Assembly (NCBI GenBank): GCA_031384385.1
Contig: JANNAN010000017.1
Span: forward strand, 3,020-67,019
Source of the DNA: Candidatus Tayloriibacteriota bacterium
Lineage (GTDB): Bacteria > Patescibacteriota > Minisyncoccia > Phycocordibacterales > PALSA-1337
DNA length: 64,000 bases
Direction: 5' to 3'
In this document: in pieces, positions 3,015 through 35,066 of the stretch
Layout of the letters: each line of letters starts with the position of its first letter
How positions within the stretch are numbered: the stretch's first letter is position 1
The notes under the pieces: generated by a model
Told to the model about the DNA's origin: nothing
Databases searched by the model: none
Seen by the model: the letters and a program-made list of their open reading frames with translations, nothing else
Program-made: the position numbers and the translations under genes

Positions 3015-3317
3015 ATGATAAATTTATTTGCAAATTCATATAGTTCACTCCCTTTGGGTATCGGGAATTGGGGACTAGGATTTCTTACTCTTGGTGCTAT
3101 ATTGCTATTCGCTATAGCCCTAGGTCTGATTGCATTAAAAGGTTATTGTCTTTGGACGGCAGCAAGAAGAAATGAAAATGGATGGTTCGTGGCGATACTT
3201 CTTGTTAATACATTAGGTGTTCTAGAATTAATCTATCTATATTTTATTGTAGAAAAATGGAAGAAAAATAAAATAGAGAAGACAGAAACAACAACGACAA
3301 CACCTAGTGTGCAATAG
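3015..3317 (+). CDS. Small membrane protein with two predicted TM helices
   Basis: Two hydrophobic helices and a Thr-rich C-terminus. Confidence 0.35.
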   Translation: MINLFANSYSSLPLGIGNWGLGFLTLGAILLFAIALGLIALKGYCLWTAARRNENGWFVAILLVNTLGVLELIYLYFIVEKWKKNKIEKTETTTTTPSVQ

Positions 3318-5770: not shown

Positions 5771-6346
5771 ATGAATAAAAACCTAACACCAATAATACTT
5801 GTGATACTAGCAGTCGGAATATATTTTACTTTTACTGCTGGAAAAATCGATGAATTAAAATCTATTCAGTCTGTTAATGCTGGATATCAACAAGCTTTAA
5901 ATAATTCAGAAAAGCTAATCAAGGTTCGTGATACTGTTTTGAAAAATTATAATAATATTTCTGAAGAAGATCGTGCTCGTCTTGATAAAATGTTGCCAGA
6001 TAATGTAGATAATGTTCGTCTAATTATTGATGTTAATGGTGTTGGGGCTAGGCACGGTTTATTTTTAAAAAATATAAAAACAAATGCAACCAATATAATT
6101 CCGACGGCAGAAATTACAAAGGGAAGTATTATTACAACAAAAAATAATGTAAATGGTTCTCAAGGGTATGAAACAGTAACTCTTTCATTTAATGTAACAA
6201 CAGACTATCAAACATTCATTGATTTATTGAAGGATTTAGAAATGAGTTTAAGAATTATGGATATTTCAAAAATTACACTTAATGCAAATGATGGTAAAAA
6301 TTATGAATACAGTGTTGAGTTAAAAACATATTGGTTAAAACAATAA
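5771..6346 (+). CDS. pilO: PilO-like pilus assembly protein
   Basis: N-terminal TM helix, coiled-coil region and operon position. Confidence 0.5.
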   Translation: MNKNLTPIILVILAVGIYFTFTAGKIDELKSIQSVNAGYQQALNNSEKLIKVRDTVLKNYNNISEEDRARLDKMLPDNVDNVRLIIDVNGVGARHGLFLKNIKTNATNIIPTAEITKGSIITTKNNVNGSQGYETVTLSFNVTTDYQTFIDLLKDLEMSLRIMDISKITLNANDGKNYEYSVELKTYWLKQ

Positions 6347-6713: not shown

Positions 6714-8426
6714 ATGAGTATAATCGATATACTACTTTCAAAAAATCTTATAGGTAAAGATGATGTCACTGAATTAAGACAAAGAGTTTCCAAAGGAGAA
6801 TCTTTGGATCAAGTTTTAATTGAAAAAGGAATAGGACCTGATGAAATTTTATCTGCGCATGGTGAATTTTTAAATATCCCAATACGCGCATTGGGAGATA
6901 CTATTGTTCCTTTTGAAGCACTTGATTATATTCCTGAAGAATCAGCTACTCATTATAAATTTGTTCCAATTGCAATTAAAGCTGGAGTTCTTGAGGTAGG
7001 AATTGTTGATCCAGACAATATTGAAGCTCGTGATGCTTTAAATTTTATTGCCGCAAAGAAAAATATTCCTTATAAAGTTTTTCTTATAAATATAGATGAT
7101 TTTAACAAAGTAATTGAATCGTATAAAGGAATTGGCGGAGAGGTGTCCAAAGCTCTTACTGAACTTGAATCTGTGCTCTCTGTTGATACGGGTGATTCAA
7201 TTGATTTAAAACAAGCAAAAACTGACGATTCAGATGCAATCATTATTGAAGATGCGCCGGTAGTAAAAATCGTTGCTTCTATTGTTAGATATGCTACAGA
7301 AGGAAATGCTTCTGATGTACACATAGAACATATGAGAGACAAAATTCGTGTGCGTTTTCGTGTCGATGGTATTTTAAATACAAGTTTAGTTCTTCCTCCA
7401 CAAGTTCATGGAGCTGTAGTTTCTCGTATTAAAATTCTTTCAAATATGAAACTTGATGAAAAACGCAAGCCGCAAGACGGTCGTTTTTCTGCAAGAATTG
7501 ATGGAAGAAAAATAGATTTCCGTGTTTCAACCTTTCCAGCTTATTATGGAGAGAAGGTTGTGATGCGTATCCTTGATCAAGAAAAAGGTGTTAAAAAAAT
7601 AGATGATTTGGGCATGACATCAAAAAATCTAGCCCTTTTAAAAGAAGCAATTCAAAGACCATACGGGTTGATACTTTTGACTGGTCCGACTGGTTCAGGA
7701 AAATCTACTACTCTCTATTCTATGTTAAATGAAGTAGATAAAGAAAGTTATAATGTGCTTTCTCTAGAAGATCCTATTGAATACAATATGGACGGTGTAA
7801 GTCAATCACAAGTTCGTCCAGAAATTGGTTATACATTCGATTCAGGACTTCGTACTACTCTTCGTCAAGATCCAGATATTATAATGGTGGGAGAAATTCG
7901 AGATAAGGAAACTGCGCAGCTTGCTGTGCAAGCTGCGCTTACTGGTCACCTTGTATTTTCTACACTCCATACAAATAATGCTGCAGGCGTGATCCCTCGT
8001 CTTATAGATATGGGTGTTGATCCTTTCCTTATCGCTCCCACACTTATCTGTGCGATTGCCCAGCGTCTAGTTGGAACATTACCACCCGGTGCGGGAAAAC
8101 CTCTGCCAGTTGAGGGTAGTATAAAAATGATGATAGATAAACAATTTTCTGATCTCCCAGAACAATATAAAAAAGATATTCCTTTTTCAGATACAGTTTA
8201 TGGAATTGCACCAACAGCAGAATGTCCAAGAGGTACTAGAGGGCGTATGGCTGTATTTGAAGTATTTAAAATGGATAAAGAAATTGAAAATGCAATTCTT
8301 ACAAATCCAACAGAGCTTGAAATCAGCAGACTGCTTCGCCAAGAGGGTATGATAACAATAAAAGAAGATGCAATGATTAAGGCATTTCAAAAACTTGTTC
8401 CTTTTGAAGAAGTTAATAAGCTTTAA
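6714..8426 (+). CDS. pilB: Type IV pilus assembly ATPase PilB (GspE family)
   Basis: N-terminal GSPII_E_N-like domain. Walker A LTGPTGSGKSTTLYSML. His box GHLVFSTLHTNNAAG. Confidence 0.85.
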   Translation: MSIIDILLSKNLIGKDDVTELRQRVSKGESLDQVLIEKGIGPDEILSAHGEFLNIPIRALGDTIVPFEALDYIPEESATHYKFVPIAIKAGVLEVGIVDPDNIEARDALNFIAAKKNIPYKVFLINIDDFNKVIESYKGIGGEVSKALTELESVLSVDTGDSIDLKQAKTDDSDAIIIEDAPVVKIVASIVRYATEGNASDVHIEHMRDKIRVRFRVDGILNTSLVLPPQVHGAVVSRIKILSNMKLDEKRKPQDGRFSARIDGRKIDFRVSTFPAYYGEKVVMRILDQEKGVKKIDDLGMTSKNLALLKEAIQRPYGLILLTGPTGSGKSTTLYSMLNEVDKESYNVLSLEDPIEYNMDGVSQSQVRPEIGYTFDSGLRTTLRQDPDIIMVGEIRDKETAQLAVQAALTGHLVFSTLHTNNAAGVIPRLIDMGVDPFLIAPTLICAIAQRLVGTLPPGAGKPLPVEGSIKMMIDKQFSDLPEQYKKDIPFSDTVYGIAPTAECPRGTRGRMAVFEVFKMDKEIENAILTNPTELEISRLLRQEGMITIKEDAMIKAFQKLVPFEEVNKL

Positions 8427-21997: not shown

Positions 21998-22073
21998 GCC
22001 GACGTAGCTCGGTTGGTAGAGCACTCCATTGGTAATGGAGAGGTCATCGGTTCGATCCCGATCGTCGGCTCCA
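21998..22073 (+). tRNA. tRNA-Thr (GGT), with encoded CCA
   Basis: Acceptor GCCGACG/CGTCGGC. Anticodon stem CTCCA/TGGAG with loop TTGGTAA. 3' TCCA. Confidence 0.85.
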
Positions 22074-22078
22074 GTGTC

Positions 22079-22143
22079 GCCAAAGTAGCTCAGTTGGTAG
22101 AGCATCACTTTCGTAAAGTGAGGGCCTCCGGTTCGATCCCGGA
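22079..22143 (+). tRNA. tRNA-Thr (CGT)
   Basis: Acceptor GCCAAAG/CTTTGGC. Anticodon stem TCACT/AGTGA with loop TTCGTAA. Confidence 0.8.
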
Positions 22144-22303
22144 CTTTGGCTCATTTAAGAATATATGCTATAATAGTTTTTAACCGAGATGGAAGTTGTG
22201 GTCAATTAATGTCCTAGGACATTTGATGATATGGTGAGACATCCGTCTCTTTTTTCCATTCATCTTCTACCCACTACGACCCCACTCGGTTTTCTTTTTA
22301 TAT

Positions 22304-23185
22304 ATGGATAAGCAAAAAACAGAATTAAGAATACAAGAAATTGAAATAGCAATGCAAGCAGGAGATTTTTGGTCTGATAAAAATAAAGCTCAAGCAACAC
22401 TGAAGGAACTGCAAGATTTAAAAAATAATCTTGAAGGAATTGGTAAATTTGATAAAGGAAATGCCATCATGACTATTTTTTCTGGTGCAGGAGGAGATGA
22501 TGCGGAAGATTTTTCTGCAATTTTATATAGAATGTATAGAAAATTTTGTGAGAAACAAGGATGGGGAATGGAATTAATTCACGAAAATGTTAATGATCAT
22601 GGTGGTTTTAGAAATATTACAGTCGAAATAACTGGTAAAAATATTTATGGAACTTTAAAAAATGAAAGTGGAGTTCATCGTCTTGTTCGTATCTCTCCAT
22701 TTAATGCTAAACAACTTCGGCACACTTCATTTTCAATGGTTGAAATTATTCCAAAATTTGAAAAGATAAACAGTATTGATATGGAATTATCAGAAAAAGA
22801 CATTGAAATTTCAATTGCAAAATCAGGAGGTCCTGGAGGACAGAACGTCAATAAAAGAGAAACTGCAGTTAGGATTGTCCATAAACCAACAGGACTTTCG
22901 GTGCATGTAACTTCAGAAAGATCCCAAGCCCAAAATAAAGAAAAAGCATTAGATATTTTGAAGGGTAAATTATTTAAGCAAATGGAAGATGAGAGAATCG
23001 CCAAAGAAAAAGGAATGTATATTAGTAAGTCTACATCTATTGAATGGGGCAATCAAATTCGATCATATGTATTTCACCCTTATAAAATGGTAAAAGATCA
23101 TAGAACCAATGTAGAAACAAATCAAGTTGAAAAAGTTCTCGAGGGAGAATTGGAGGATTTTCTTGAAGCAGAGAAGGTATTATAA
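22304..23185 (+). CDS. prfB: Peptide chain release factor 2, N-terminally short. No programmed frameshift site is apparent.
   Basis: SPF tripeptide motif (SPFNAK) and GGQ motif ([20 protein letters not shown]). The N-terminus aligns with the post-frameshift portion of canonical RF2. Confidence 0.8.
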
Positions 23186-23212
23186 AAAGAGTTTTTTTGT
23201 TATAATAACTGC

Positions 23213-23893
23213 ATGATTTATTTTGATAAAGTTTCAAAAATATACCCAGACGAATCGATGGCTCTTGACGGAGTTAGTTTTGGAATAAAACCCAATGAAT
23301 TCGTGACTATTGTTGGTCATTCAGGAGCAGGAAAAACTACACTTATAAAAATGCTAATCGCCGAAGACAGACCGTCAGAAGGTGCTGTTTTTTTTGAATC
23401 AGCAAATATTCATAAATTAAAAAAGGGAGAAATGAATAAATTGCGAAGACGCATTGGAACTATTTTTCAAGACTTTCGTTTGATTCCAAATAAGACAGCA
23501 TACGAAAATATTGCATTTGCTATGGAGGCTTCTGGATGTACAGATGGAGAGATAGCATCTGATGTTCCTCATGTTTTAGAGCTTGTAGGTCTTGGTCATA
23601 AGATTTGGAGTTTTCCGCATGAACTTTCTGGTGGTGAAAAACAACGCGTGGCTATTGCGAGGGCAATTGTAAATCAGCCAGATATTATTATTGCAGATGA
23701 ACCTACTGGAAATCTTGATCCAATAAATACTTATGAAATTATAAAAATTCTTCAAAAAATTAATGAATTGGGAACTACTGTTTTGCTAACAACTCATAAT
23801 AAGGGTGTTGTAGATACAGTAAACAGTCGAGTTATTACAATGGAAAAGGGTAAGATTATCCGTGATGATAAAGATGGGAAGTATGTTTTATAA
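23213..23893 (+). CDS. ftsE: Cell-division ABC ATPase FtsE
   Basis: Walker A GHSGAGKTT, LSGGEKQR signature, and an adjacent ftsX. Confidence 0.8.
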   Translation: MIYFDKVSKIYPDESMALDGVSFGIKPNEFVTIVGHSGAGKTTLIKMLIAEDRPSEGAVFFESANIHKLKKGEMNKLRRRIGTIFQDFRLIPNKTAYENIAFAMEASGCTDGEIASDVPHVLELVGLGHKIWSFPHELSGGEKQRVAIARAIVNQPDIIIADEPTGNLDPINTYEIIKILQKINELGTTVLLTTHNKGVVDTVNSRVITMEKGKIIRDDKDGKYVL

Positions 23894-23910
23894 TTAATTA
23901 CTTATTAAAT

Positions 23911-24867
23911 ATGATTTTTACTAATTTAAAAAGAATAACTAGAACAGGATTTATAAATTTTTGGCGAAATGGTTTTCTTTCATTTTCTGCAATGGTTGTC
24001 ATTACGCTTTCGCTTTCAGTTTTCGGAGCTTTGATTTTTGGAAGTGCATTTGGAAGAGCTCTTCTTAAGGAGGTTAAAAATAAAGTCGATATAAATGTAT
24101 ATTTCGTACTAGATTCTCAAGAGACAGACATTTTGGCTTTGAAAAAAATAGTAGAAAGTTTACCAGAGGTTGATAAAATCGAGTATGTTTCTCGTGAACA
24201 ATCATTGATTGATTTCAAAAATAAATGGAAAGATAATACGCTAATTTTACAGGGTCTTGATGAAATTGGGGATAATCCTTTTCCTGCTGTTTTAAATATA
24301 AAAGCAAAAGAACCATCACAATATTCTGGTATTACTCATTTTCTTGATAGTAAAAGTGCACTTTCAAAAGGCGGTACAAATATTATAGAAAAGATAAATT
24401 ATAATCAGAATAAATTAATTATTGATAGGCTTGGTAGAATTATTCCAGCAGCTGAAAAGACTGGATCACTTATTGCGATACTTTTTGTAATTGTGGCTAT
24501 TGTTATTACATTCAATACTATTAGACTTATTATTTTTACAGCAAAAGATGAAATTTCAGTTATGAAATTGGTAGGTGCATCAAATCTTTATATCAGAGGA
24601 CCATTCGTTGTTTCTGGAATAATGTACGGAGTTTTTTCTGGAATTCTAACACTCATAGTTCTTGGTGGATTTGCATATTATAGCGATACTTTAATTATGA
24701 GATTTGCTGGAGTTCGTGGAGCTCAAGATTTCTCACTTCTTATAAATGTTTTCTCAAGTTATTTTATTCAAAATTTTGGTCAAATATTTGCAATTATAAT
24801 GGGATCAGGAATTGTCCTTGGAGGTATATCAAGCTACTTATCAGTTAAAAGATATTTGCGAATATGA
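23911..24867 (+). CDS. ftsX: Cell-division permease-like protein FtsX
   Basis: N-terminal TM helix, a large extracellular loop, three C-terminal TM helices. Located downstream of ftsE. Confidence 0.75.
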   Translation: MIFTNLKRITRTGFINFWRNGFLSFSAMVVITLSLSVFGALIFGSAFGRALLKEVKNKVDINVYFVLDSQETDILALKKIVESLPEVDKIEYVSREQSLIDFKNKWKDNTLILQGLDEIGDNPFPAVLNIKAKEPSQYSGITHFLDSKSALSKGGTNIIEKINYNQNKLIIDRLGRIIPAAEKTGSLIAILFVIVAIVITFNTIRLIIFTAKDEISVMKLVGASNLYIRGPFVVSGIMYGVFSGILTLIVLGGFAYYSDTLIMRFAGVRGAQDFSLLINVFSSYFIQNFGQIFAIIMGSGIVLGGISSYLSVKRYLRI

Positions 24868-26531
24868 AAAAGAAAAATCATCATAAATATATCTTTGTTG
24901 TTGGAGGAGTTATGTCTGGAGTTGGAAAGGGAATCGCCACTTCGTCTATTGGAACTCTTCTTCAAGCAAAAGGTTTTGATGTAAATCTAGCTAAGGTTGA
25001 TCCATATTTGAATGTCGACGCAGGAACAATGAACCCCACCGAACATGGTGAGGTTTTTGTTTTGAATTCTGGGCTCGAAACAGATCAGGATATGGGGAAT
25101 TATGAAAGATTTTTAAATAGAGATTTAATTCATGAAGATTATATTACTTCTGGAATGGTCTATAAGCATGTAATTGATAAAGAAAGAAATTTAGGATTTA
25201 AAGGTAAATGTGTAGAAGCAGTACCACATATTCGTGATGAAATTGTTGGTAGATTTGAAAATGCTGCAAAATTAAATAAAAGTGAAATCTCGATAATTGA
25301 AATTGGTGGTACAGTTGGTGATTATCAAAATATTATGTTTATTGAAGCTGCCCGTGTTTTGAAAATCAATCATCCAGATGATGTAGTATTTATTATGGTG
25401 AGTTATCTTCCAATTCCTTCAAAAATAGGTGAAATGAAAAGCCGACCAACTCAAAATGCTGTTCATCAGCTTGCTGGCTACGGCGTTACAACTGATATTA
25501 TAATTGCTCGTTCTGAAGCCGTGGTTGATCAAAAGAGAAAGGAGAAAATTGGTATTGCATGTAATATTCCTGAACAAAATGTTATTTCAGCGCCTGATAT
25601 TGATTCTGTTTATGATGTTCCATTAAATTTTGATAAAGATGGACTCGGCGATATTTTATTAAAATCTCTAAAATTAGAAAAAAGAAAAGGTAAAGGATTG
25701 GGTAATTGGAAGAAATTTGCTCACAATATTAAAAATTCTGAAAAAGAAATTAATATTGCAATTGTTGGTAAATATTTTAATACTGGTGACTTCGTTCTTA
25801 CTGATGCATATCTTTCTGTTCTTGAAGCAATTAAATACTCAGCTTGCGTTCATAAAGTAAAAGCAAAAATTCATACTGTAAATTCTCGTGATTTTGAAAT
25901 TAAAAATCCTGATTATTCTTCTCTAAATAAATTTGATGGTGTAATTGTGCCAGGTGGATTTGGCGAAACTGGAATTGAAGGAAAATTGAATGTAATTAAA
26001 TATGTTCGTGAAAATAAAATTCCATATTTTGGACTTTGTTATGGAATGCAATTGATGACTATTGAATATGCAAGAAATGTTCTTGGTCTTGAAAACGCTC
26101 AAACTGCTGAAATAAATCCAAAAGCTGAGCATTTGATTATCGATATTATGCCCGATCAAAAGAAGAAATTACTTGAAAAGGACTATGGTGCAAGTATGAG
26201 ACTTGGTTTATACACTGCAAAAATTAGAAAAGATACTATTGCATTTAATGCCTATAAAACAAATACAATTCATGAAAGACATCGTCATCGTTATGAGGTG
26301 AATCCAAAATATATTGAAAGATTGGAAAAAGGAGGACTAGTATTTTCTGCTACATCACCAAATGGTACTCTTATGGAGATTGCTGAACTTCCACAAGGAG
26401 AAGGTGAGGGTCAGCATCCATTTTTTCTTGGAACACAATTCCATCCAGAATATTTAGCTAGACCATTAAGACCACATCCATTATTTACGGAATTTATTAA
26501 GGTAGCGAAGAATAGGAAGAGTAAGATATAA
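24864..26531 (+). CDS. pyrG: CTP synthase
   Basis: N-terminal synthetase domain (IFVVGGVMSGVGKGIATSS) and C-terminal class I glutamine amidotransferase (GLCYGMQL). Confidence 0.9.
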   Translation: MKKKNHHKYIFVVGGVMSGVGKGIATSSIGTLLQAKGFDVNLAKVDPYLNVDAGTMNPTEHGEVFVLNSGLETDQDMGNYERFLNRDLIHEDYITSGMVYKHVIDKERNLGFKGKCVEAVPHIRDEIVGRFENAAKLNKSEISIIEIGGTVGDYQNIMFIEAARVLKINHPDDVVFIMVSYLPIPSKIGEMKSRPTQNAVHQLAGYGVTTDIIIARSEAVVDQKRKEKIGIACNIPEQNVISAPDIDSVYDVPLNFDKDGLGDILLKSLKLEKRKGKGLGNWKKFAHNIKNSEKEINIAIVGKYFNTGDFVLTDAYLSVLEAIKYSACVHKVKAKIHTVNSRDFEIKNPDYSSLNKFDGVIVPGGFGETGIEGKLNVIKYVRENKIPYFGLCYGMQLMTIEYARNVLGLENAQTAEINPKAEHLIIDIMPDQKKKLLEKDYGASMRLGLYTAKIRKDTIAFNAYKTNTIHERHRHRYEVNPKYIERLEKGGLVFSATSPNGTLMEIAELPQGEGEGQHPFFLGTQFHPEYLARPLRPHPLFTEFIKVAKNRKSKI

Positions 26532-26539
26532 TAATCATT

Positions 26540-27415
26540 ATGTTAGCCACAGGAATAGTTCTTGCAATAATAGCCATGCTCTCTTGGGGTTTTGGTGATT
26601 TTCTTATTCAAAAAAATACTAGAAAAATTGGTGATTGGGATACTTTATTTTTTATAACATTATTTGGTTCGGTAATACTTTTACCATTTTGCTATAAACA
26701 AGTTTGGGATTTAATGAATCATTTTAATAGTGAGACATTGATTCTCTTGGTCGCATCAGTTACTCTATTTTTTGCGGCGATTATAGACTTTGAAGCTTTG
26801 AGAAAAGGGAAGCTTTCAATAGTTGAATCAATTTGGTCATTTGAAATTCCAATGACATCATTTTTGGCCTTTTTTATTTTAAAAGAAACTATTTCAGTAA
26901 CTGAATTTATTTTAATTGCATTACTTTTGATCTGTCTCGTTCTTGTTGCTTTTAATGAAAATAAATTTACTAAAAAATTCTTCTTAGAAAAAGGTGTAAT
27001 CTTTGCTTTGCTTTGGGCTGTACTGATGGGGTCTGCTAACTTTTTTATAGGCTGGGGTGCAAGAGTTACCGATCCAATTACAATTAACTTTATTACAGAT
27101 ACATTTTTAATGTTGATTTGTTTGATCGTACTTTTATTTAAAGGTAATTATAAAAAAACAGTAAAAGATATTAAAAATAATTTAGGTACACTTTTACCAA
27201 TGTCTATTGCTGATAAAGTAGCATGGCTAGCCTTTGCCTATGCAATGGTTCTAACTCCGATAGCGATTGCAACAGCTTTAAGTGAAAGTTATATAATTGT
27301 GGCGGTTATGCTCGGAGTTTTTATTAATAAAGAGAAATTATATAAACATCAAAAAATTGGAATTGTGGGGGCGGTGGCATTTGCAATAACTTTGGCAGTG
27401 ATTAGTTCGAATTAA
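26540..27415 (+). CDS. EamA/DMT-family membrane transporter-like protein
   Basis: About 10 predicted TM helices in two repeated halves. Confidence 0.45.
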   Translation: MLATGIVLAIIAMLSWGFGDFLIQKNTRKIGDWDTLFFITLFGSVILLPFCYKQVWDLMNHFNSETLILLVASVTLFFAAIIDFEALRKGKLSIVESIWSFEIPMTSFLAFFILKETISVTEFILIALLLICLVLVAFNENKFTKKFFLEKGVIFALLWAVLMGSANFFIGWGARVTDPITINFITDTFLMLICLIVLLFKGNYKKTVKDIKNNLGTLLPMSIADKVAWLAFAYAMVLTPIAIATALSESYIIVAVMLGVFINKEKLYKHQKIGIVGAVAFAITLAVISSN

Positions 27416-27460
27416 TTTAGCTTGAATAAACTCAATTTTTAAGGTATTTTGTAAGGACAT

Positions 27461-27532
27461 TGCCAGATCGTCTAACGGTAGGACGTCGCTCTCTGAAAGC
27501 GAAAATTTTGGTTCGATTCCAAGTCTGGCAGC
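27461..27532 (+). tRNA. tRNA-Gln (CTG)
   Basis: Acceptor TGCCAGA/TCTGGCA (U1-A72 as in bacterial tRNA-Gln). Anticodon stem TCGCT/AGCGA with loop CTCTGAA. T-arm TTTGG-TTCGATT-CCAAG. Confidence 0.8.
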
Positions 27533-29085
27533 AATTTCGCAAAAATCGCAGAATCGCCGAAAAAAGGCGAAGGGGTCGCAGAATGAGGAGGGCGGGGCGG
27601 AATTCCCCCCTGAAACACCCCTTCCGCCCCGCCCGCTTCCTTGTTGGCGTTTTTGGGAATTTTCGTTACAAATGCAAAAGGAAAATGCGGAGAAAAAATG
27701 AGGGTGCGGTTGTGGACGAGTGGGTTCGAACCGACTTTTTCAAAGAATGATCGAATTTTCGTAGCATCAGTACTCTCTGCCAAAATAGTGGCTTGTTTAC
27801 AGTCGTTTAGGAAATTTATGATAGGTTCGAACCGATTGCTAGAAACTTTGCCGAAAGCAGTGATTTTGTCTTTCAAAACCTGCTTTTCGGTCACCAATTT
27901 ATTCTTTGTTTCTTGATACTCTTCAAGAGTTAGGGCATTGCCAAGATATGCTGACATAAGTTTTTCTAATTTAGCGTCAACGGCTAGTGCCTCACTATTT
28001 ACTTTCTGAATCTGATTTTTTGAGGAATCATCGTCTTTAGATCGATCTTTCTCTACTTCCGCAATAAGCCAGTCGGCCACTTCACTAGACAGTGATACTT
28101 TTCTGATCTCATCCTGGATGAGTGTCGTCATAGCTTCCTCACGGACATACTTTTGAGAGCATGGGCCTTTGCGTTTGGTGCAGCGTAAATAGTTATGACC
28201 TTTTTGTGTCTCAATAGTAAGGCAACAGCCACATTCAGCGCATTTGAACAGTCCGCGATAAACATATGGTTTCAAATCACCGTCATGTTGTGGTTTACTT
28301 TTTTTGGTCATGACTTCCTGGCATATATCAAAAATTTTCTTGGTGATAATCGGCTCATGCTTGCCTTCATAAAATTCACCATGAAAAAGTATGAGTCCAT
28401 GATAAAGATTATTTTTGAGTAGATACTGATAATTTGAAATGGAAAGCTCCTTGCCTTTGTGTCCAGTCAAGCCAAGTTCACCTATACTTTTGCGGAGGGC
28501 TGATAAAGTATAATTTCTGGTAGCATATGTTTCAAAAGCTTTCTTGATGAAAGGAGCTTTTTCAGGATCGACTACAATGAGTTTTGTTTTCTTGTCGTTA
28601 AGATATCCAATCGGCGCTTTCTGTGGCCAGATGCCGTTCTTCAATTTTTGTTTGTAACTCCTCTTAACATTTTCGGAAAGATTGTCTACATAATATTTCG
28701 ATTGAGAAAAAGAGATGGAAAGCATAAATTTTCCCTGCGGAGTTGCGTCAAACCAGAAAGTTGGAAATTTTAAATCAGTAATTACACCAGTATCAACCAT
28801 GTAAATGATTTTTCCACCATCAACCGAGTTACGAGCGAGCCTGTCGGGATGCCAAGCCAAAATCCCTGAAGCCTCGCCAGCTTCTATGCGCTCCAACATC
28901 TCCGCGAAAACAGGTCTACCGGGAGTTTTGGCAGTTTGCTTCTCGATAAATACATCTACAACCTCCAGTTGCTCTTTTTTGGCGAGCTCGCGTAGCTCGG
29001 AGAGCTGGTCGGCAAGACTTCGGACTTGTCGATCCTCGGTATCGGTAGATTTGCGGGTGTAAATAAAATATTTCTTGTCGCTCAT
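27472..29085 (-). CDS. Large serine recombinase (resolvase/invertase N-domain, recombinase domain, zinc ribbon). The ORF reads through the GC-rich trailer into tRNA-Gln.
   Basis: N-terminus YTRKSTDTEDRQVRSLADQ (catalytic Ser region). Cys cluster CAECGCC...CTKRKGPC. Size 537 aa. The last ~20 codons overlap tRNA-Gln on the opposite strand. Confidence 0.8.
   Translation of the reverse strand: MSDKKYFIYTRKSTDTEDRQVRSLADQLSELRELAKKEQLEVVDVFIEKQTAKTPGRPVFAEMLERIEAGEASGILAWHPDRLARNSVDGGKIIYMVDTGVITDLKFPTFWFDATPQGKFMLSISFSQSKYYVDNLSENVKRSYKQKLKNGIWPQKAPIGYLNDKKTKLIVVDPEKAPFIKKAFETYATRNYTLSALRKSIGELGLTGHKGKELSISNYQYLLKNNLYHGLILFHGEFYEGKHEPIITKKIFDICQEVMTKKSKPQHDGDLKPYVYRGLFKCAECGCCLTIETQKGHNYLRCTKRKGPCSQKYVREEAMTTLIQDEIRKVSLSSEVADWLIAEVEKDRSKDDDSSKNQIQKVNSEALAVDAKLEKLMSAYLGNALTLEEYQETKNKLVTEKQVLKDKITAFGKVSSNRFEPIINFLNDCKQATILAESTDATKIRSFFEKVGSNPLVHNRTLIFSPHFPFAFVTKIPKNANKEAGGAEGVFQGGIPPRPPHSATPSPFFGDSAIFAKLLPDLESNQNFRFQRATSYR
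27534..27650. repeat. GC-rich tRNA trailer, family C, with a perfect 12-bp inverted repeat (GGCGGGGCGGAA ... TTCCGCCCCGCC at 27590-27632)
   Basis: Shares gaatcgccgaaaaaaggcgaaggggtcgcagaatgaggagggc with trailer B (about 80% identity). TCGCAGAAT occurs twice. Hairpin with a 19-nt loop. Confidence 0.55.
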
Positions 29086-29240
29086 GGATGTATTTTACCA
29101 AATTTTTCAGAAAGCAAGAAATATTTTTTACATAAATCAGTGCATAAACAGTTAACAACTATACTTTCATTGAGAAGCGGTCGACTTTTGCTTCCCTCAC
29201 TGGACATTGTTCACCCTATCACATATCTGTATGTCGGATG

Positions 29241-29274
29241 CTTCCCACGGTTGCAATGAGTAACCGTGGGAAGC
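29241..29274. repeat. Perfect 12-bp inverted repeat hairpin within the GC-rich region upstream of the recombinase
   Basis: CTTCCCACGGTT-gcaatgagt-AACCGTGGGAAG. The surrounding 29100-29560 is about 50% GC with a further stem GAAGCGG-aagtgag-CCGCTTC. Confidence 0.6.
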
Positions 29275-29597
29275 GCGGGAGCCGTTCGGATATGCGTCTG
29301 GAGCGCCACAGACCTACTAGAAGCGGAAGTGAGCCGCTTCGAGTCACTGTAGCCTGTGATTTGTGATGTGTGATTGCGTTCAAAAATGAAAAGTAAAAGG
29401 AGGTGAGTACCCATCTGGTCCGCAACCGCACCCTCGTTTTTTCACCACGCTTGCCCTATGCCCTCGTCACGCACATTCCCGGAAAAATAAGGATTTATGC
29501 GGGCGGGTGATGGGGTTTGATTCTACTAAAGGAAAACGTAAATTATGTGTAAAGGCAGGACTTTTAAAATTGACTAAAACATAGTATTATTACCTGT

Positions 29598-32500
29598 ATG
29601 TTTGAAGGACCTCATATACCTAATGACGAATTGGAGAAAGATAAAGTTGAATCATCTGCATCAGATGCATTAGAGGCTCCTCTAGAAGATTGGAAAAATA
29701 GAGCATATTTTCGTATAAATCTCGGTGTTCATCGAGAAAGGATTGATCGAATAGTGGAACCTCTCAAAGAGACTCATCCGGAGTGGTTCAGATCTTTTAA
29801 AAATAAAACTGGGATGGGTGAGTATTTCTCCCCCGAGCTTGTTTCGATAGTTAGAGAAGAACTTGAAAAATATAAAAAGGCACCGGAAGGCTGGGAAGTC
29901 ATTAGTACTCTAGAGGAGTTAACTGGTAAATCAGGTGGTTTTATAAGTAAGACTATTGAACCATATAGAGAAACTCATCCCGAGTGGTTTAAAGATTATC
30001 TAAGTAAGAGGTCTAAGATTCTTGAACATTACGCACCTGAACTTATAACAATATTAAAAAAAGAATTTCAAAGTTATGAATATGCTCCTGAAGGATGGAA
30101 AACAAGAAATTCTGTGGCAAAGTCACTGAATGCTACAGATTTTATAGTTCAAAAAATTGTTAATCAGTTTGAACAAATTCATCCAGAGTTGGTAAAAGAT
30201 TACATGACAAAATCAGGTGTACTCACGCATTTTTCACCAGAATTAATCCTGATTATTGAAGAAGAACTGCTAAAAGAAGAAAAAGCACCAGAAGGGTGGG
30301 AAGTGATAAGTATGTTAGCTGAATTAACTGACAGAAGTCCTTTATTAATCAGAAGAACCATTGAACCATATAGAGAAACTCATCCCGAGTGGTTTAAGAA
30401 TTATAAGACTAGATCTGGTTTATTTGAACATTTTTCTCCTGAGTTAGTTGCGGTTATTAAAAATGAATTTTTAAAAGAAGAAAAACCACCAGAAGGGTGG
30501 ATGAATAGAAATGAATTGCATGATTCTTTGGGAATCAGTTATAAGAAACTTAATCGAATGGTAGCAACTCAGAAAGAAATTCATCCTGAGTGGTTTAAGT
30601 TCTTTAAGGGCAAGGCATTAGTTACGGAGTATGTATCCCCAGATGCTATTTTATTTTTTAAGGATATCGTAGTAAAAGAAGAGGAACCTCAAAAAGGTTG
30701 GATGAGTCCAGGGGAGTTAGGAGATTATTTGAAAGTTGCTTTTAAAACTATCAAAAAGGTAGCTGTAGAGCATAAAAAAAGTAATCCAGAGTGGTACAAA
30801 CTTTATAAATCAGATAATGCGAATATGACGGAGTACTATTCTCCCGAGTTGGTTATGATCCTGGAGGATAGATTTTTAAAGCCTCCACCACCTCTGGATT
30901 GGAAGACTATAAAATCATTTGCTGTTTCTAGAAATAGTGCCGTTAAGACAATTGAGAAACTTGTAGAATCGTATAGGGAGACAAATCCAGAATGGTTCAA
31001 GAATTATCGAACAAATAATGGTGTACACGAGCATATTTCTCCCGAACTGATTTCAGTAATAGAAAATTATTTTTCTAAGCAAAGCCCCCTTAAAGGATGG
31101 GAGGTTTTACAGTCATTGATTGTTTCCACGGGAAGATCGAATAAATTCATTGAGAAATTAATATTACCTTATAGAGAAACACACCCTGAATGGTTTAAGG
31201 AATTCAGAAGTGAAGATGGCAATTTGCGAAAATATTATTCTCCAGAATTAATTTCAATAATCAAGAATGAACTTTCAAATACTGAGTTTGTTCCAGAAGG
31301 ATGGGTGACTAGGAATTTCTTCTCCAAATCTAAGGGAGTAGATGTTGATATGATCGAGGACATAATAGCGCCGTATAAAGAAAAAAATCCAGAATGGTTT
31401 AGAAAGTTTGTATCAAAAAATGGTGGACAGAAGGTGGAGTATCTTTCACCGGAGCTAGTTTCCATTTTACAAAAAGAATTGGTAGATAATATAGCTCCAG
31501 AAGGTTGGAAGGTCTTGAGAGCCCTAAGATTTTCTATTGGTATTTCAGGATCTCCAATTAAGAAAATAGCCGAACCATATAGAGATTCTAATCCTGAATG
31601 GTTTAAAACTTTCAGAAGCGAAGATGGTAATTTACGCGAATATTTTTCTCCAGAATTAGTCTCGATTATAGAAACTGAACTATTAAAAGAAGGTGAGGCG
31701 CCAGAAGGATGGTTGAGAAATACTACTATAGCCAATTCACTTGAAGTAACAAAAGAAAAAACTAAGAAACTTGCAGATCAAAGTAGGGAAGCACATCCAG
31801 AATGGTTTAAAGATTTTAGGGGGAAAGAAGGTATATTCGAGTACTATTCACCCGAATTAATTTTGATTATTAAGAATTCTATTTTTATAGAAGAAAATGA
31901 GGCGCCTGGTGGCTGGGAGACCAATAAAGGTTTACAAAATAAAACGAATTTTTCTTACTACCTTCTCGAAAAAATTGAAGAACCTTACAGACTTACTCAT
32001 CCAGAATGGTTCAAAAACTTCAGAAGCAAGACAGGTGTGTATGAGCACCTTTCACCAGAACTGGTCTCAATTATTAAAGAAGAGGCTGAAAGACGACAAA
32101 GCTATGAGAGTGAAATTTTGAATAGAGAAAATTTCGATAAAAACCTTGTCGGATTTCTTAAAGGTGTAGACTCCTCAAAAGAAGGTATCGAATTCAAAGA
32201 CCTTATCAGTGTTTTCGGCTCGTCATCTGTTTTAGATATATTGTATGCAACGCACCCAGAATTCAAAGCAGTTCCTGTTGAACGTGTAAAATCTGTTATT
32301 GCTGAATATCTTGGAAATTACTTATTGTCGCCAGGTGCTTTTTCATTAGATTCGGTTAAAAATAATTTGTCATATCTTAAAGAAGAAAATATAAAGAATG
32401 GACTGGTTGAAGTGGTGAAAGATCATTGTCTGACGTATTTTTTAGAATATAAAAAGGCTAACCATGATAAAGATGATCAACAAATATTTACCGAATATTT

Positions 32501-35066
32501 TGCTCAGTTGGAAGATCAAACAAGTAGTTTTAATAATGCTGATCTTGATTCTGTGATCAAAGAGATAACTGAATACTATCAATCTATATTCAATCTAGAA
32601 AAGGGTGAACATCTCATTGAATCGTTAAACTCCGGAAGAAGCTTCCCGGATATTTATCAGAGTATCAATATAAAGGAAATTTCTGATAAGAAAAGATTGT
32701 TGATTGCCGATGAAATGGGTGTAGGTAAGAGTGCTTCAGCAATAATTGCAAAGGAATCTCTCGGCTCAAAATTGGCGCTAGTGGTTGTACCAAGTAATGT
32801 AGTAAATACATGGGAAAAATATCTGTCTGACACAGTCGGAGAAGATGCTAAAAAGATTGGATATTTCAAGAGTGGCGAAGCGCCTCGTGTTTTGGTTGTG
32901 AATGATATAGAAGAACTGAATAATATTGATCAAAATTTATACGATTATATTCTCATTTCTCATGAGAAACTTACTGGAAAATATACTGGAGCACTTGATG
33001 TCTTGGACTACGACATGCTCATTGTCGATGAAGTTCATAAGTTTAAGAATCTCAGTAGTGCAAAACGTCCAGAACAGCTCATTAGATTAGCTGAAAAGAT
33101 ACAAGGTGATGATAAATATCTTGCACTTCTATCGGGTACGCCAGTGCCAAATAAGATTGAGGATGTGGCATTACTCTTGAGACTCCTCCATCCAGATCGT
33201 TTCGAGGACCAAGATAATAAGCAAATTGTATCAAGTGTGCTCAATGGCAACCTTTCTGATATTCGAGCTTTGCTTGTGCCATATATGCAGAGAAAAGATC
33301 TGCGAGATCACATTGAGATGCCAAAACTTGATGAGGAAGTCATACCAGTTACACTTACTGGATCAGAGAAGGATGTATACGAAGTTTTGCTTGAAGAAGA
33401 TGAACTTACTCCAACTGAAAAAATGATTACCTTGCGTCGTTTCCTTATGAACCATGAGACACTGGATATTACACCAAATATACAAAGTAGTAAGGTTGAG
33501 ACCTTGAAAGGAAAGCTCACTGAAACTTTTGAATCAAAAGATAAGGTTGTTTTGTTTGTGAATGATTATGTGAAAGGTGTGATTGAAGGCGATAATTCAA
33601 TATTGTCTAATCTTGAATTACCAGAAGATGTTGAGATTAAGGTTGTCTACGGTGAAGTGTCTCAAGCCGAGAGAGTCTCTATTCAAGAAGAATTTAATAC
33701 TGAAAACGGTAAGAAAATATTATTGGTTGTTAGTGGTCAGACTGCTGGCGTCGGAGTTGATTATACTGGTGGAGAACACATATATTTCTATAATGAACCA
33801 TGGACAAAGGCGGACAGCGATCAACAAAAAGCTCGAGTATATAGACCTGGACTTAAACACGATATCCAATCAGAGACTCTGATTACAAAAGATACAATTG
33901 AGGAAGGTATACATCGATATGTTGAGTTGAAACACCAAGCAGTCAATAAGCTTCTGAATGGTATTCCAATTACAGAATTTGAAAAAGAACTATTGGAGAA
34001 GAGTGAACAATCAGAGGGCAATCTTGAAGTGAATCCAGAACTAGCTAACTATTATTTCTCATCTTTTGATAAGATGAATAGAATTTTTGCAGCGGTTAAA
34101 GAAATGGGTGAAGAAAATTTTTGGGATTTCATTGAGAAGCATGGCGCAGAATATGCTGATTGTTACTTTGAACTTGGTAATAGAAGCTATCAAGCCAATG
34201 CAAGTCGAGTCTGTGCCACATTGATTGATTCAATGATCAAAGCAGAAAAGTCTGATCCAAAAGATCTCAAAATTATCGATATTGCATCTGGTCCCGAGAT
34301 GCTTCGCCGTCACAGTAAAGAAGATGTTCAATCTGCTATTGTCAGTGCGGATATAAACATCAATCATTTCATCAATCGAGGCACGAAGGATGCGGTAGTC
34401 GCTGGCTTTACTGAATTACCATTCCCAGATAATAATTTTGATTATGCTAATTTTTCGCTCGCATTTCATTATAGTAAATTCTTACCAAGTAAAAATGAGT
34501 ATGAACGCGCAGAAGTATTAAAGGAAATTAATCGCGTTCTCAAAGTTGATGGCACAGCTGTTATTAATATGATTTATAGTCTTGATTTCAAGGACGTTGA
34601 TAAGTTTAAAAAGCTTGTTGGTTCTTTTGGTTTTGATGTTGTAGAAGGTTATTCCGGTGAAGTGGAATCTTCGGATAATTATAGATCAAGAGTTATTACA
34701 CTTAGAAAAAATAGTGATATAGAGCAATCAGCAGAAGAAGTGCTGAAAGATATGACCAGAGAAGAAATGGATGGTTTGAAGTTTGTTAGAACGACAGAAG
34801 GCCTCAAGGATTCAAGAAAGATTGTTTCTGATTTCAAACTCAATGGTAAAAGTTTTCATATTGATTTCAATGATTCAGATAAAATAGTCGTAAGAGAGGA
34901 AAAAGGTATTTTGGAGGACGGTAAAAGACTAAAAGATAAATATGGTTCAATCAAGGATATATCAAAGGAGGAGGTTGTGAATAATAATTTTGTCAGATTG
35001 TTGGTAGGGGAAAAGCATATTCTTTTCAAGAAGCTTTCAAAAGGAGGGGTGGTTTTGGTGAGATAG
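29598..35066 (+). CDS. Giant multidomain protein (1822 aa). It has an N-terminal array of 12 tandem ~68-aa repeats, an SNF2-family helicase/translocase, and a C-terminal class I SAM-dependent methyltransferase (Methyltransf_11-like).
   Basis: Repeats have the form W..L...IEPYRETHPEWFK.Y....G..EHYSPELISII..E...APEG. SNF2 motifs DEMGVGKS (I), LIVDEVHKFKN (II, DExH), LLSGTPVPNKIEDVALLLRLLHPDRF (III) and QQKARVYRPG (VI). MTase motifs IIDIASGPEML and LPFPDNNFDYANFSLAFHY. Confidence 0.8.
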   Translation: MFEGPHIPNDELEKDKVESSASDALEAPLEDWKNRAYFRINLGVHRERIDRIVEPLKETHPEWFRSFKNKTGMGEYFSPELVSIVREELEKYKKAPEGWEVISTLEELTGKSGGFISKTIEPYRETHPEWFKDYLSKRSKILEHYAPELITILKKEFQSYEYAPEGWKTRNSVAKSLNATDFIVQKIVNQFEQIHPELVKDYMTKSGVLTHFSPELILIIEEELLKEEKAPEGWEVISMLAELTDRSPLLIRRTIEPYRETHPEWFKNYKTRSGLFEHFSPELVAVIKNEFLKEEKPPEGWMNRNELHDSLGISYKKLNRMVATQKEIHPEWFKFFKGKALVTEYVSPDAILFFKDIVVKEEEPQKGWMSPGELGDYLKVAFKTIKKVAVEHKKSNPEWYKLYKSDNANMTEYYSPELVMILEDRFLKPPPPLDWKTIKSFAVSRNSAVKTIEKLVESYRETNPEWFKNYRTNNGVHEHISPELISVIENYFSKQSPLKGWEVLQSLIVSTGRSNKFIEKLILPYRETHPEWFKEFRSEDGNLRKYYSPELISIIKNELSNTEFVPEGWVTRNFFSKSKGVDVDMIEDIIAPYKEKNPEWFRKFVSKNGGQKVEYLSPELVSILQKELVDNIAPEGWKVLRALRFSIGISGSPIKKIAEPYRDSNPEWFKTFRSEDGNLREYFSPELVSIIETELLKEGEAPEGWLRNTTIANSLEVTKEKTKKLADQSREAHPEWFKDFRGKEGIFEYYSPELILIIKNSIFIEENEAPGGWETNKGLQNKTNFSYYLLEKIEEPYRLTHPEWFKNFRSKTGVYEHLSPELVSIIKEEAERRQSYESEILNRENFDKNLVGFLKGVDSSKEGIEFKDLISVFGSSSVLDILYATHPEFKAVPVERVKSVIAEYLGNYLLSPGAFSLDSVKNNLSYLKEENIKNGLVEVVKDHCLTYFLEYKKANHDKDDQQIFTEYFAQLEDQTSSFNNADLDSVIKEITEYYQSIFNLEKGEHLIESLNSGRSFPDIYQSINIKEISDKKRLLIADEMGVGKSASAIIAKESLGSKLALVVVPSNVVNTWEKYLSDTVGEDAKKIGYFKSGEAPRVLVVNDIEELNNIDQNLYDYILISHEKLTGKYTGALDVLDYDMLIVDEVHKFKNLSSAKRPEQLIRLAEKIQGDDKYLALLSGTPVPNKIEDVALLLRLLHPDRFEDQDNKQIVSSVLNGNLSDIRALLVPYMQRKDLRDHIEMPKLDEEVIPVTLTGSEKDVYEVLLEEDELTPTEKMITLRRFLMNHETLDITPNIQSSKVETLKGKLTETFESKDKVVLFVNDYVKGVIEGDNSILSNLELPEDVEIKVVYGEVSQAERVSIQEEFNTENGKKILLVVSGQTAGVGVDYTGGEHIYFYNEPWTKADSDQQKARVYRPGLKHDIQSETLITKDTIEEGIHRYVELKHQAVNKLLNGIPITEFEKELLEKSEQSEGNLEVNPELANYYFSSFDKMNRIFAAVKEMGEENFWDFIEKHGAEYADCYFELGNRSYQANASRVCATLIDSMIKAEKSDPKDLKIIDIASGPEMLRRHSKEDVQSAIVSADININHFINRGTKDAVVAGFTELPFPDNNFDYANFSLAFHYSKFLPSKNEYERAEVLKEINRVLKVDGTAVINMIYSLDFKDVDKFKKLVGSFGFDVVEGYSGEVESSDNYRSRVITLRKNSDIEQSAEEVLKDMTREEMDGLKFVRTTEGLKDSRKIVSDFKLNGKSFHIDFNDSDKIVVREEKGILEDGKRLKDKYGSIKDISKEEVVNNNFVRLLVGEKHILFKKLSKGGVVLVR
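29688..32136 (+). repeat. Twelve tandem ~204-bp coding repeats inside the giant gene. They are divergent at the nucleotide level.
   Basis: Periodic recurrence of HPEWF(K/R), YSPEL and APEGW every ~68 aa. Confidence 0.8.

Follow-up and report, generated by a model that had tools for sequence, protein, structure and literature searches.

A tRNA-proximal junction of a probable small integrative element with a large serine recombinase in Patescibacteria

Introduction

A recombinase gene whose reading frame finds its stop codon only inside a neighboring tRNA gene raises the question of whether site-specific integration has brought the two together and, if so, what kind of element was integrated. 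We addressed this for a locus in a 64,000-nt stretch of DNA from Candidatus Tayloriibacteriota (hereafter the window, i.e. the whole of what was analysed), for which a first-pass annotation had proposed an integrative element inserted at tRNA-Gln. Comparison with related loci suggests that the locus is probably the tRNA-proximal attL site of a small integrative element that relies on a large serine recombinase (LSR); elements of this kind are complete in relatives, and the copy in the window is partly decayed. Judged from the sequences compared, the element family is specific to Patescibacteria/CPR bacteria and common throughout these ultra-small cells.

Results

The recombinase gene and the tRNA overlap as follows:

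27461-27532, plus strand: tRNA-Gln(CTG), called by ARAGORN and scoring 60 bits with Rfam
27472-29085, minus strand: LSR open reading frame (ORF), 537 aa, with a stop codon from antisense tRNA-Gln(CTG)
27529-27538, no strand: junction and putative attL core, the tRNA discriminator ...GCAG being followed by CAATTTC...; element homology begins here

The Pfam domain set (Resolvase, Recombinase and Zn_ribbon_recom) identifies the protein as a large serine recombinase. PF00239 covers residues 7-152 (E=8.6e-21); C-terminal to this catalytic domain lie PF07508 (E=1.5e-11) and PF13408 (E=3.4e-07), each passing its curated cut-off. R11, S13 and R22 are invariant among the 28 sequences of alignment A2, in which the catalytic N-terminal motif YTRKSTD..R is kept as well, and the enzyme is predicted to catalyse attP x attB recombination. 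It has more than 7500 homologues, the best of which are from Patescibacteria; those scoring highest come from metagenomes of this group.

As had been noted, the minus-strand frame stays open until it is within tRNA-Gln. The accompanying estimate of about 60 final codons from trailer and tRNA was too low: the GC-rich trailer accounts for about 69 codons and the tRNA for a further 20, which are antisense to its 3' half. The GC-rich DNA described on both sides of the gene was confirmed (0.50 at 27500-27699 and 29200-29499 vs ~0.30 in the surroundings), and so were the two perfect inverted repeats, with stems of 13 instead of 12 bp (27590-27602/27622-27634, within a 21-nt imperfect pair, and 29240-29252/29262-29274). 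With Rfam, neither 26500-30500 (E<=1) nor the complete window (gathering score) yielded anything but tRNAs; these flanks are not a known RNA. Nor is the arrangement an assembly artefact, since an independently assembled Logan contig is 100% identical over 22016-29984.

An inverted repeat that brackets the entire LSR gene had been overlooked by the first-pass annotation. It spans 71-120 nt (27650-27720/29415-29485, 75% complementary), and BLAST stretches its arms to 27529-27739 and 29395-29507. The corresponding features are:

27533-27739 (core to 27720, ~190 nt), minus strand: arm B, tRNA-proximal, encoding LSR residues from about 450 to 518
27582-27642, no strand: GC-rich hairpin in arm B with a perfect 13-bp stem (27590-27602/27622-27634), translated as AGGAEGVFQGGIPPRPP
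29086-29394, minus strand: conserved leader of the Gln clade (alignment A3, 7 loci)
29395-29515, plus strand: remnant of arm A, which repeats the inner half of arm B in inverted orientation, is truncated and decayed, reading ...LVRNRTLVFSPRLPYALVTHIPGKIRIYAGG and a stop

Arm B is 90% identical over 212 nt to the inverted upstream arm of a related locus (L001). Its hairpin shows compensatory changes at 6 of 13 pairs across nine distinct arms, with 99.1% of cells paired, which was matched by 0 of 500 shuffles. The leader carries a TGGTAAAAT box 6 nt upstream of the ATG and three hairpins (29172-29194; 29240-29274, the second repeat of the earlier annotation; 29320-29340). Its palindromes GAAGCG..CGCTTC are invariant across the seven aligned loci, both sides of the stem at 29240-29274 are changed in L002, L005 and L006, and no Rfam family matched 29086-29394. 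The arm A remnant matches the arms at 74-78%; its outer half and the adjoining segment F are absent from the window, relatives carrying a complete arm and F at the same place. A 67-aa ORF (29414-29211) starting at the inner junction of arm A is a doubtful candidate for a directionality factor, as most of the Ser clade has only ~37 nt there.

Across 80 related loci from Patescibacteria, the usual layout runs from a tRNA 3' end through arm B, recombinase, arm A, F, cargo and an inverted F into host DNA, F having an end that mimics the 3' end of a tRNA. An inverted repeat brackets the LSR gene in nearly all 80 loci, and 23 arm pairs are perfect. Arms of 120-212 nt do so in 55 loci (median identity 99.2%), and in 46 of these 55 a tRNA adjoins the LSR 3' end, namely tRNA-Gln in the closest clade and four tRNA-Ser isoacceptors in the rest. 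Arm identity is 88-100% within an element vs 58-91% between elements, and the arms evidently evolve in concert. The F end is kept beside arm A in ~70 loci. In 20 loci, F is found again, inverted, at a distance of 1.5-5 kb; this copy always ends at the same nucleotide (...ACA, then CCGC), and what follows is host DNA of unrelated sequence, a terminator or, in tRNA clusters, the next tRNA. The tRNA/arm and the distal F/host junction are thus both present in these 20 loci, for instance in L045, where the element sits between tRNA-Ser and tRNA-Arg. The elements measure 3.5-7 kb and are devoid of phage genes, and a viral contig collection searched for a phage parent gave only three close matches, all cut at contig ends, and so no evidence of such a parent. 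At four loci whose arm B flanks neither a tRNA nor F (L022, L023, L028, L033), Rfam found no RNA gene. The literature searched held no description of this architecture.

The motif TTCGAA lies 11 nt from the repeat boundary in 39 of 43 tRNA flanks and 16 nt from it in 34 of 47 F flanks. In LI integrase, the motif of the zinc-ribbon domain (ZD) is shifted by 5 bp between attP and attB and is nearer the center in attB (PMC3783163). Because the TTCGAA of F sits 5 bp further out than that of the tRNA, F/arm would be the attP-like site and tRNA/arm attL; we infer this half-site assignment from the one motif and the LI integrase precedent, and the arm-side half-site and the crossover dinucleotide are putative. 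In the window, the 3' end of tRNA-Gln(CTG) (T-loop TTCGAT ... GGCAG) would then represent the host, attB-type half-site, and we tentatively place the crossover at 27529-27538. The arm boundary falls on the same nucleotide in the window, L001-L006, L107 and L156, and empty tRNA-Gln sites diverge from this position onward. At the distal F/host junction of L081, the common sequence is only CAGCAATTTC.

Integration at the tRNA, as proposed initially, is supported by its occupancy. Among the relatives listed that carry it, the tRNA-Gln(CTG) downstream of pyrG is mostly empty, with unrelated DNA after the tRNA and no recombinase match (e.g. L086, L089, L092, L101-L103, L129), and the window, L107 and L156 are the cases in which an element fills it; the family almost always resides at a tRNA 3' end, with several copies in some genomes. 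Our searches found neither a circular or excised form nor a precise empty site that matches an occupied locus on either side of the insertion. What does not apply is the label of a classic tRNA-island signature: the 3' segment of the tRNA is not duplicated, which is what one would expect with a serine recombinase, and the second copy of the tRNA-Gln 3' end that the first-pass annotation had suggested looking for was absent from the window with up to 3 mismatches allowed. The hallmark is instead the long inverted repeat together with the F mimic.

Discussion

That the att site may overlap the integrase 3' end, another suggestion of the first-pass annotation, agrees with the coding pattern of the family, the LSR frame being open through the arm to the junction in 52 of 53 distinct arms. 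One might object that this read-through is meaningless, the protein ending near ...FSPHFPFAFV and the long ORF arising from stop-poor GC-rich DNA. In line with this objection, the tail is of low complexity (AGGAEG..PPRPP) and doubles as a hairpin, and its last residues vary with the flank. We nevertheless consider it very unlikely, as the other two frames are open in only 26 and 22 of the 53 arms, and the pattern spans clades whose arms cannot be aligned. Besides, conservation of the tail in homologues away from tRNAs had been put forward as an argument against integration. The tail is indeed kept where the LSR 3' end faces no tRNA, because the element's own arm encodes it; only the last 15-20 residues are flank-derived.

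The orientation of the recombinase module calls for a closer look at what is mobile. L029 has the opposite recombinase orientation (tRNA, arm, then the ATG end), in L081 and L083 the recombinase 3' end is followed by an arm, F-cargo-F and host DNA, and L001 and L081, from related strains, show opposite orientations within the same flanks. Among the 120 best homologues, 47 tails fit a tRNA-type pattern and 11 a strict F-type pattern, the number of F-type tails being ~25 when judged by eye. Assemblies break at repeats that exceed their k-mer, which may make some of the orientations called on short contigs unreliable. These observations could indicate an inversion switch, with the LSR flipping its own gene between the arms like Hin and thereby altering its own C-terminal tail, perhaps also tRNA or cargo expression, and with mobility being secondary. 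Long near-perfect inverted repeats around the gene would suit such a switch, as would the identical arm half shared by both junctions, through which flipping regenerates both sites. Yet tRNA sites that are filled in some relatives and vacant in others, the use of five tRNAs and genomes with several copies all point to insertion, genome representatives are strongly biased to one orientation (46 vs 0), no outward promoter was detected, homologous recombination over 120-212-nt arms would explain flipping without the LSR, and the decayed arm A precludes any switch in the window. On balance, we regard this reading as unlikely, though it carries more weight than the other alternatives discussed here. 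Module orientation may reflect homologous recombination between arms, flipping by the LSR, or the use of either of two inverted attP sites; arm-specific SNPs in flipped vs unflipped relatives could not place the crossover, the arms being too homogenised. Recombination of attL with attP is not known from canonical serine integrases, and LSR-driven flipping would accordingly be non-canonical. It is rather doubtful that the module self-inverts through such a pair of attL-type (tRNA/arm) and attP-type (F/arm) sites; the reaction would be reversible without a directionality factor, because the identical arm half is common to both sites and both are regenerated, and the tRNA- or F-derived tail might then sense the state of the element and tune the stability or directionality of the enzyme. 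We give slightly less credence still to the notion that the mobile unit is only arm-recombinase-arm, resembling an insertion sequence with 120-212-nt terminal inverted repeats that settles next to TTCGAA-N-CCG ends (tRNA or F), F-cargo-F being separate and non-autonomous. Many contigs of 1.4-2 kb do consist of just the recombinase and terminate in the repeat, several genomes have more than one copy, and L075 is flanked by F-like ends on both sides. Short contigs are, however, expected wherever the repeat exceeds k, F accompanies arm A in essentially every locus and cargo goes with the unit as well, no tRNA/F junction without the recombinase module was seen, and an arm-to-arm circle would be a 240-420-bp perfect palindrome.

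An integrative element at the tRNA is thus the reading we prefer. As the relatives show, a complete element extends from the tRNA 3' end over arm B, the recombinase gene (transcribed towards the tRNA), arm A, F, cargo and inverted F to host DNA. Arm B is the translated 3' end of the LSR gene, such that the reading frame passes through the recombination site and takes its stop codon from the DNA outside, either the antisense tRNA or F, and the arm restores the discriminator/CCA end of the tRNA. With F/arm as the attP-like site, tRNA/arm as attL and distal F/host as attR, integration would proceed by attP x attB at the tip of tRNA-Gln or tRNA-Ser genes, typically delivering restriction/defence cargo. 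Less easily accommodated by this explanation is the internal attP-like site (arm A/F) that every integrated element keeps. The window copy has arm B and the LSR gene intact, arm A halved and no F, and is most likely immobilised; only a single junction survives in it.

In the window, one gene may represent cargo of the element:

29598-35066, plus strand: giant repeat-SNF2-helicase-methyltransferase gene (Pfam SNF2-rel_dom, Helicase_C, Methyltransf_11)

The junction had been taken as the border of an island with this gene. The gene lies where related elements have their cargo, and in the same orientation; restriction/defence genes are found there (in L003 and L002, a type III R-M system and an EcoRI-like MTase/GmrSD), and the DNA downstream of the pyrG-linked tRNA-Gln is non-syntenic among relatives. 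The giant protein had no tblastn match in 84 related loci, so there is no recurrent association. Neither a degenerate pattern nor an nhmmer profile revealed a copy of F in the window (best E=0.33), and since arm A is halved as well, no far border can be placed; an attempt via synteny after tRNA-Gln in pyrG-anchored relatives failed as the region is too variable, even the closest relative (L086) having nothing in common there. That the giant gene belongs to the element is therefore plausible only by analogy.

Among known systems, the element is close to phage-type LSRs (phiC31, Bxb1, A118/LI integrase), with which it shares the domains and the lack of target duplication; its junctions resemble attL, attR and attP, and the 5-bp offset of the motif between the putative host- and element-type half-sites recalls that of LI integrase. 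It differs in its target, the extreme tRNA 3' end, in an LSR ORF running across the att site, in the inverted repetition of the att-proximal 120-212 nt upstream of the gene, in the retained internal attP-like site, and in its small size of 3.5-7 kb with no phage genes and no recombination directionality factor identified. Hin and Gin likewise lie within inverted-repeat segments found in both orientations; as small serine invertases, they act on 26-bp sites together with a Fis-dependent enhancer and are not known to be mobile. The likeness is limited to a gene between inverted repeats (75% complementary in the window) and, in relatives, both orientations: the 537-aa LSR is not a Hin-type small invertase with a C-terminal helix-turn-helix and ~26-bp sites, its arms are 120-212 nt long, and it sits at a tRNA whose site is empty in relatives. 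In cluster G mycobacteriophages (integration-dependent immunity) and in SSV1 (int partition), recombination at an att site within a coding region reportedly changes the C-terminus of the protein. Those systems involve tyrosine integrases and a repressor or split int; here, the tail of a serine recombinase would be swapped between tRNA- and F-derived endings. Tycheposons and other tRNA-seeded islands also combine small, often defensive cargo, degenerate remnants and reuse of the same tRNA (bioRxiv 10.1101/2020.12.28.424599). They mostly employ tyrosine recombinases and partial tRNA direct repeats, in contrast to the serine recombinase, missing tRNA duplication and inverted F mimic as distal border of the present element.

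In summary, the elements would account for a recurrent difficulty in annotation and assembly, namely recombinase ORFs extending into tRNAs and contigs broken at the arms. They would provide many natural serine integrases whose attP-like (F/arm) and attB-like (tRNA 3' end) sites can be read from genomes, which could be useful for genome engineering, and would exemplify in nature the model of a 5-bp zinc-ribbon shift. An ORF across the att site with two alternative tails offers a testable route to directionality control. For CPR bacteria, whose tiny genomes have few recognised mobile elements, these loci may represent a large family of compact cargo carriers that has apparently not been described before and suggest a route by which restriction and defence genes are gained at tRNA hotspots.

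The recombinase gene and its junction with tRNA-Gln

The minus-strand open reading frame beside tRNA-Gln encodes 537 aa, in which Pfam recognized Resolvase, Recombinase and Zn_ribbon_recom domains, each over its curated cut-off, and which is therefore a large serine recombinase (LSR). Given the position of the tRNA, called by both ARAGORN and Rfam, the ORF stops 20 codons into the antisense tRNA.

27461-27532, plus strand: tRNA-Gln(CTG)
27472-29085, minus strand: LSR ORF
27590-27602/27622-27634: hairpin 1, 13 bp, perfect
29240-29252/29262-29274: hairpin 2, 13 bp, perfect

GC content rises to 0.50 on either side of the gene, against ~0.30 in nearby DNA, and positions 22016-29984 are 100% identical in an independent Logan assembly. 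The ORF call, ARAGORN, Rfam, GC profile and Logan assembly hence bear out the first-pass annotation, according to which the recombinase frame meets no stop before tRNA-Gln and is flanked by GC-rich DNA. The two perfect inverted repeats it described are also present, yet with a length of 13 bp each instead of 12 bp. It missed a larger inverted repeat that brackets the gene (27650-27720 versus 29415-29485; 75% complementary) and that BLAST and MAFFT widened to about 27529-27739 and 29395-29515. Translated from the plus strand, the right arm of this repeat reads ...LVRNRTLVFSPRLPYALVTHIPGKIRIYAGG-stop, which is a divergent version of the tail of the recombinase itself, ...LVHNRTLIFSPHFPFAFVTKIPKN.

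Inverted arms bracket the recombinase in nearly all loci of the family

More than 7500 homologues of the recombinase were found, with the top ones all stemming from Patescibacteria metagenomes. Many can be aligned with it through the final residue, and their tails (...DSNPR, ...ESNQ and similar) correspond to a tRNA T-arm translated in frame from its complementary strand. We surveyed tRNA adjacency and arms in 80 loci from GTDB genomes. Nearly everywhere, the recombinase 3' end adjoined a convergent tRNA; for the closest clade (L001-L004, L006) this was tRNA-Gln(CTG), for the others tRNA-Ser (GGA, TGA, GCT, CGA). Below, we refer to Gln and Ser clades by the tRNA targeted. Self-comparison revealed the bracketing repeat in almost all of these loci, and in 55 it measured at least 100 nt (100-212 nt), with a median arm identity of 99.2% and 23 perfect pairs. 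Arm B spans the ORF end and terminates at the final 3-6 nt of the tRNA, while its inverted copy, arm A, lies upstream of the start codon. Arm identity is 88-100% within an element versus 58-91% between elements, meaning that the arms evolve in concert. Besides, the recombinase frame is stop-free in 52 of 53 distinct arms, compared with 26 and 22 for the other two frames, so the arm is kept translatable and the stop codon is always supplied from outside the element.

The arm hairpin (27590-27634) displays compensatory changes at 6 of its 13 pairs over nine distinct arms, with 99.1% of cells paired, and neither shuffles nor slid registers of the stem came near the observed pairing. Judged from these alignments, the stem belongs to the arm, where its structure is conserved; the same DNA is also translated (AGGAEG..PPRPP). 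The second stem (29240-29274) sits in a conserved Gln-clade leader of 300 nt, which also contains two invariant GAAGCG..CGCTTC palindromes and, 6 nt ahead of the ATG, a TGGTAAAAT box; the leader matched no Rfam family. In an alignment of seven leaders (A3), window positions 29160-29394 form a conserved, GC-rich and hairpin-rich stretch of ~230 nt that, in the Gln clade, separates arm A from the promoter box of the recombinase and includes one covarying stem. This stretch, missing from most of the Ser clade, could be an RNA or a set of protein-binding sites.

Paired F ends enclose cargo

In front of arm A there is always a conserved segment, F, whose end mimics a tRNA 3' end; its terminal 45 nt read GGATT..C.AAA.A..TTCGAAcTTyGTCCAA.A.ACACCG/C. 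A profile search placed the F end ahead of arm A in ~70 loci, and in 20 loci with sufficient upstream DNA a second, inverted F was found 1.5-5 kb farther out. All distal copies end at one identical nucleotide and are followed by unrelated AT-rich DNA, commonly with a terminator hairpin; in L045, the distal F is succeeded by the neighbouring tRNA of a tRNA-Ser/tRNA-Arg cluster. F bodies contain hairpins whose loop is of the same kind as that of the arm hairpin. Accessory genes lie between the two F copies:

Cargo between paired F copies
L018: nucleotidyltransferase, HExxH protein, XRE regulator
L081: HTH/SocA_Panacea (antitoxin-type) gene
L083: Schlafen-like ATPase
L003: type III R-M system
L002: EcoRI-like methylase with GmrSD/HNH

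From the arms, the paired F and the accessory genes between them, the complete element reads tRNA / arm B - recombinase - arm A / F - cargo - F / host. Intact relatives are present in the samples ERZ27257034 and ERZ27300156.

Some loci deviate from this layout: L018 has two tandem distal F copies (2979-3031 and 3468-3520), in L065 the distal F (3813-3865) is followed by another arm, and L070 carries back-to-back F ends with hardly any body (5795-5851). These arrangements point to successive insertion and deletion events at a single tRNA. One contig (L066) holds tRNA-Ser(GGA) twice in the same orientation, at the element junction and ~1.8 kb past the distal F (1705-1789 and 7465-7551).

Junctions as proposed att sites and two orientations of the module

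In 39 of 43 tRNA flanks, 11 nt separate the end of the T-loop motif TTCGAA from the repeat boundary; in 34 of 47 F flanks, the distance is 16 nt. In attP half-sites of LI integrase, the zinc-ribbon (ZD) motif covers positions 16-24, while in attB half-sites it covers 11-19 and is shifted by 5 bp (PMC3783163). By this rule, the tRNA end corresponds to an attB-type and the F end to an attP-type half-site. The F/arm junction would then be attP-like, the tRNA/arm junction attL and the distal F/host junction attR, an inferred assignment that covers the flank-side half-sites. The junction core (Ser clade, CCGC(CA); Gln clade, CAGC) equals the tRNA discriminator plus CCA end, so the arm restores the tRNA tip. 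A palindromic GC dinucleotide recurs at every junction and is a candidate crossover site. The predicted empty sites are ..CCAAGTCCCGCAGCAATTTCCCTGATTATGGG for L081 and ..TCTCCGTCTCCGCGATTACAAAAAATGAGTCCGG for L018.

The recombinase module occurs in two orientations. On its opposite strand, the upstream arm of L001 encodes a tail ...AKLLSFLNEVRTFFAENPQN-stop, and exactly this kind of tail is found in P0003, a homologous protein with 89% identity. The contig of P0003 (L081) runs from the recombinase 3' end through arm, F, 3.9 kb of cargo and inverted F into host DNA; its F region is 91% identical to that of L001, yet flanks the gene on the opposite side. The complementary junction, tRNA-Ser(ACT) / arm - 37 nt - ATG, is present on one contig in L029. 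Among the 120 best homologues, 47 have the tRNA-type tail pattern, and 11 by strict pattern, or ~25 by eye (L[DN][EK]VRTFFAENP), have F-type tails. Genome representatives are heavily skewed: 46 loci have the tRNA on the side of arm B, and no locus has it on the side of arm A. As a caveat to these orientations, assemblies break at repeats that exceed the k-mer length, and this also accounts for the many contigs that end at arms.

Homologous recombination between the arms would give such a pattern, as would inversion driven by the recombinase itself, and integration of a circular form that used one or the other of two inverted attP sites would likewise fit. A comparison of SNPs did not discriminate between the three, because the arms are homogenised.

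Empty and occupied tRNA-Gln sites

As pyrG adjoins tRNA-Gln in the window and in L001, we retrieved 80 metagenome loci anchored on this gene, ~30 of which had tRNA-Gln(CTG) downstream of pyrG. Most of these showed no detectable recombinase homologue and unrelated sequence after the tRNA (e.g. L086, L089, L090, L092, L101-L103, L115, L121-L123, L129, L133, L135, L145, L155, L162). The window's recombinase family occupies the pyrG-linked tRNA-Gln in L107 and L156, where the arm hairpin carries compensatory changes, while distant LSRs (34-38% identity) lie directly downstream of tRNA-Gln(CTG) in L109, L112 and L125 and ~1.2 kb downstream in L137. Besides its distant LSR, L112 shows a Gln-type arm and a match to the F end. 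The comparison with relatives called for by the first-pass annotation thus yielded unoccupied tRNA-Gln sites, but none of the pyrG-anchored ones matched an occupied locus on both flanks. Synteny downstream of tRNA-Gln was not conserved among relatives, which marks the site as a variable hotspot. At one empty site (L162, 12663-12735), the tRNA 3' half is directly duplicated ~24 nt downstream; this is the scar expected of a different, tyrosine-type integrase and makes tRNA-Gln(CTG) a general hotspot.

The window copy and its surroundings

The window retains an intact arm B and tRNA junction as well as an intact recombinase ORF (92% identical to that of L001). Of arm A, the inner half alone is left at ~75% identity, the outer half being lost, and no F was found anywhere in the 64 kb. 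Having neither an internal attP-like site nor an attR, this copy is, on its sequence, most likely immobile.

29598-35066, plus strand: giant gene with SNF2, Helicase_C and methyltransferase domains

The giant gene begins 82 nt past what is left of arm A and points away from it, matching in position and orientation the R-M cargo of L002 and L003 and the giant surface-protein gene of L001. By this analogy, it is plausibly former cargo. Of the proposal that the recombinase borders an island with this gene, the cargo-like placement stands, whereas no homologue of the gene was found in related loci and no boundary could be placed.

Elsewhere in the window, a solo outer half of an arm (1887-1950) immediately follows tRNA-Ser(ACT) (1799-1886). 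It extends from the trailer to GGAGGGC, the hairpin start, is 80% identical to positions 12-65 of Gln-clade arms, gives way to unrelated AT-rich DNA, and is probably what a second insertion by the same element family has left behind. A tRNA-Ser with anticodon ACT (also in L011, L013, L018, L029 and L037) is unusual in bacteria, is conserved in many of the Patescibacteria genomes considered here, mostly beside tRNA-Ser(GCT), and is the insertion site in L029. In other genomes the two tRNAs are ~100 nt apart; in the window, tRNA-Ser(GCT) is followed by a GC-rich block of ~150 nt (412-560; 0.59 GC) unrelated to the arms, and antirepressor (Bro-N)-like and methyltransferase genes, as judged from sequence alone, precede tRNA-Ser(ACT) (649-1782). 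Block and genes may represent another small insertion.

Comparison with known systems

Unlike in described systems, the target here is the tRNA tip, the recombinase ORF crosses the att site, its 3' end is duplicated in inverted orientation, and the cargo is bounded by a tRNA-end mimic. The logic of a tRNA-seeded island is shared with tycheposons, which, however, mostly rely on tyrosine recombinases and leave behind partial tRNA direct repeats, the latter being absent from the window. Hin-type switches resemble the element only in having a recombinase inside a repeat layout. Our literature searches found no published description of the architecture tRNA / arm - recombinase - arm / F - cargo - F. 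The domains of the serine-integrase family are all present, and in its manner of working the element resembles an integrative element of that family. The copy in the window is a decayed representative.
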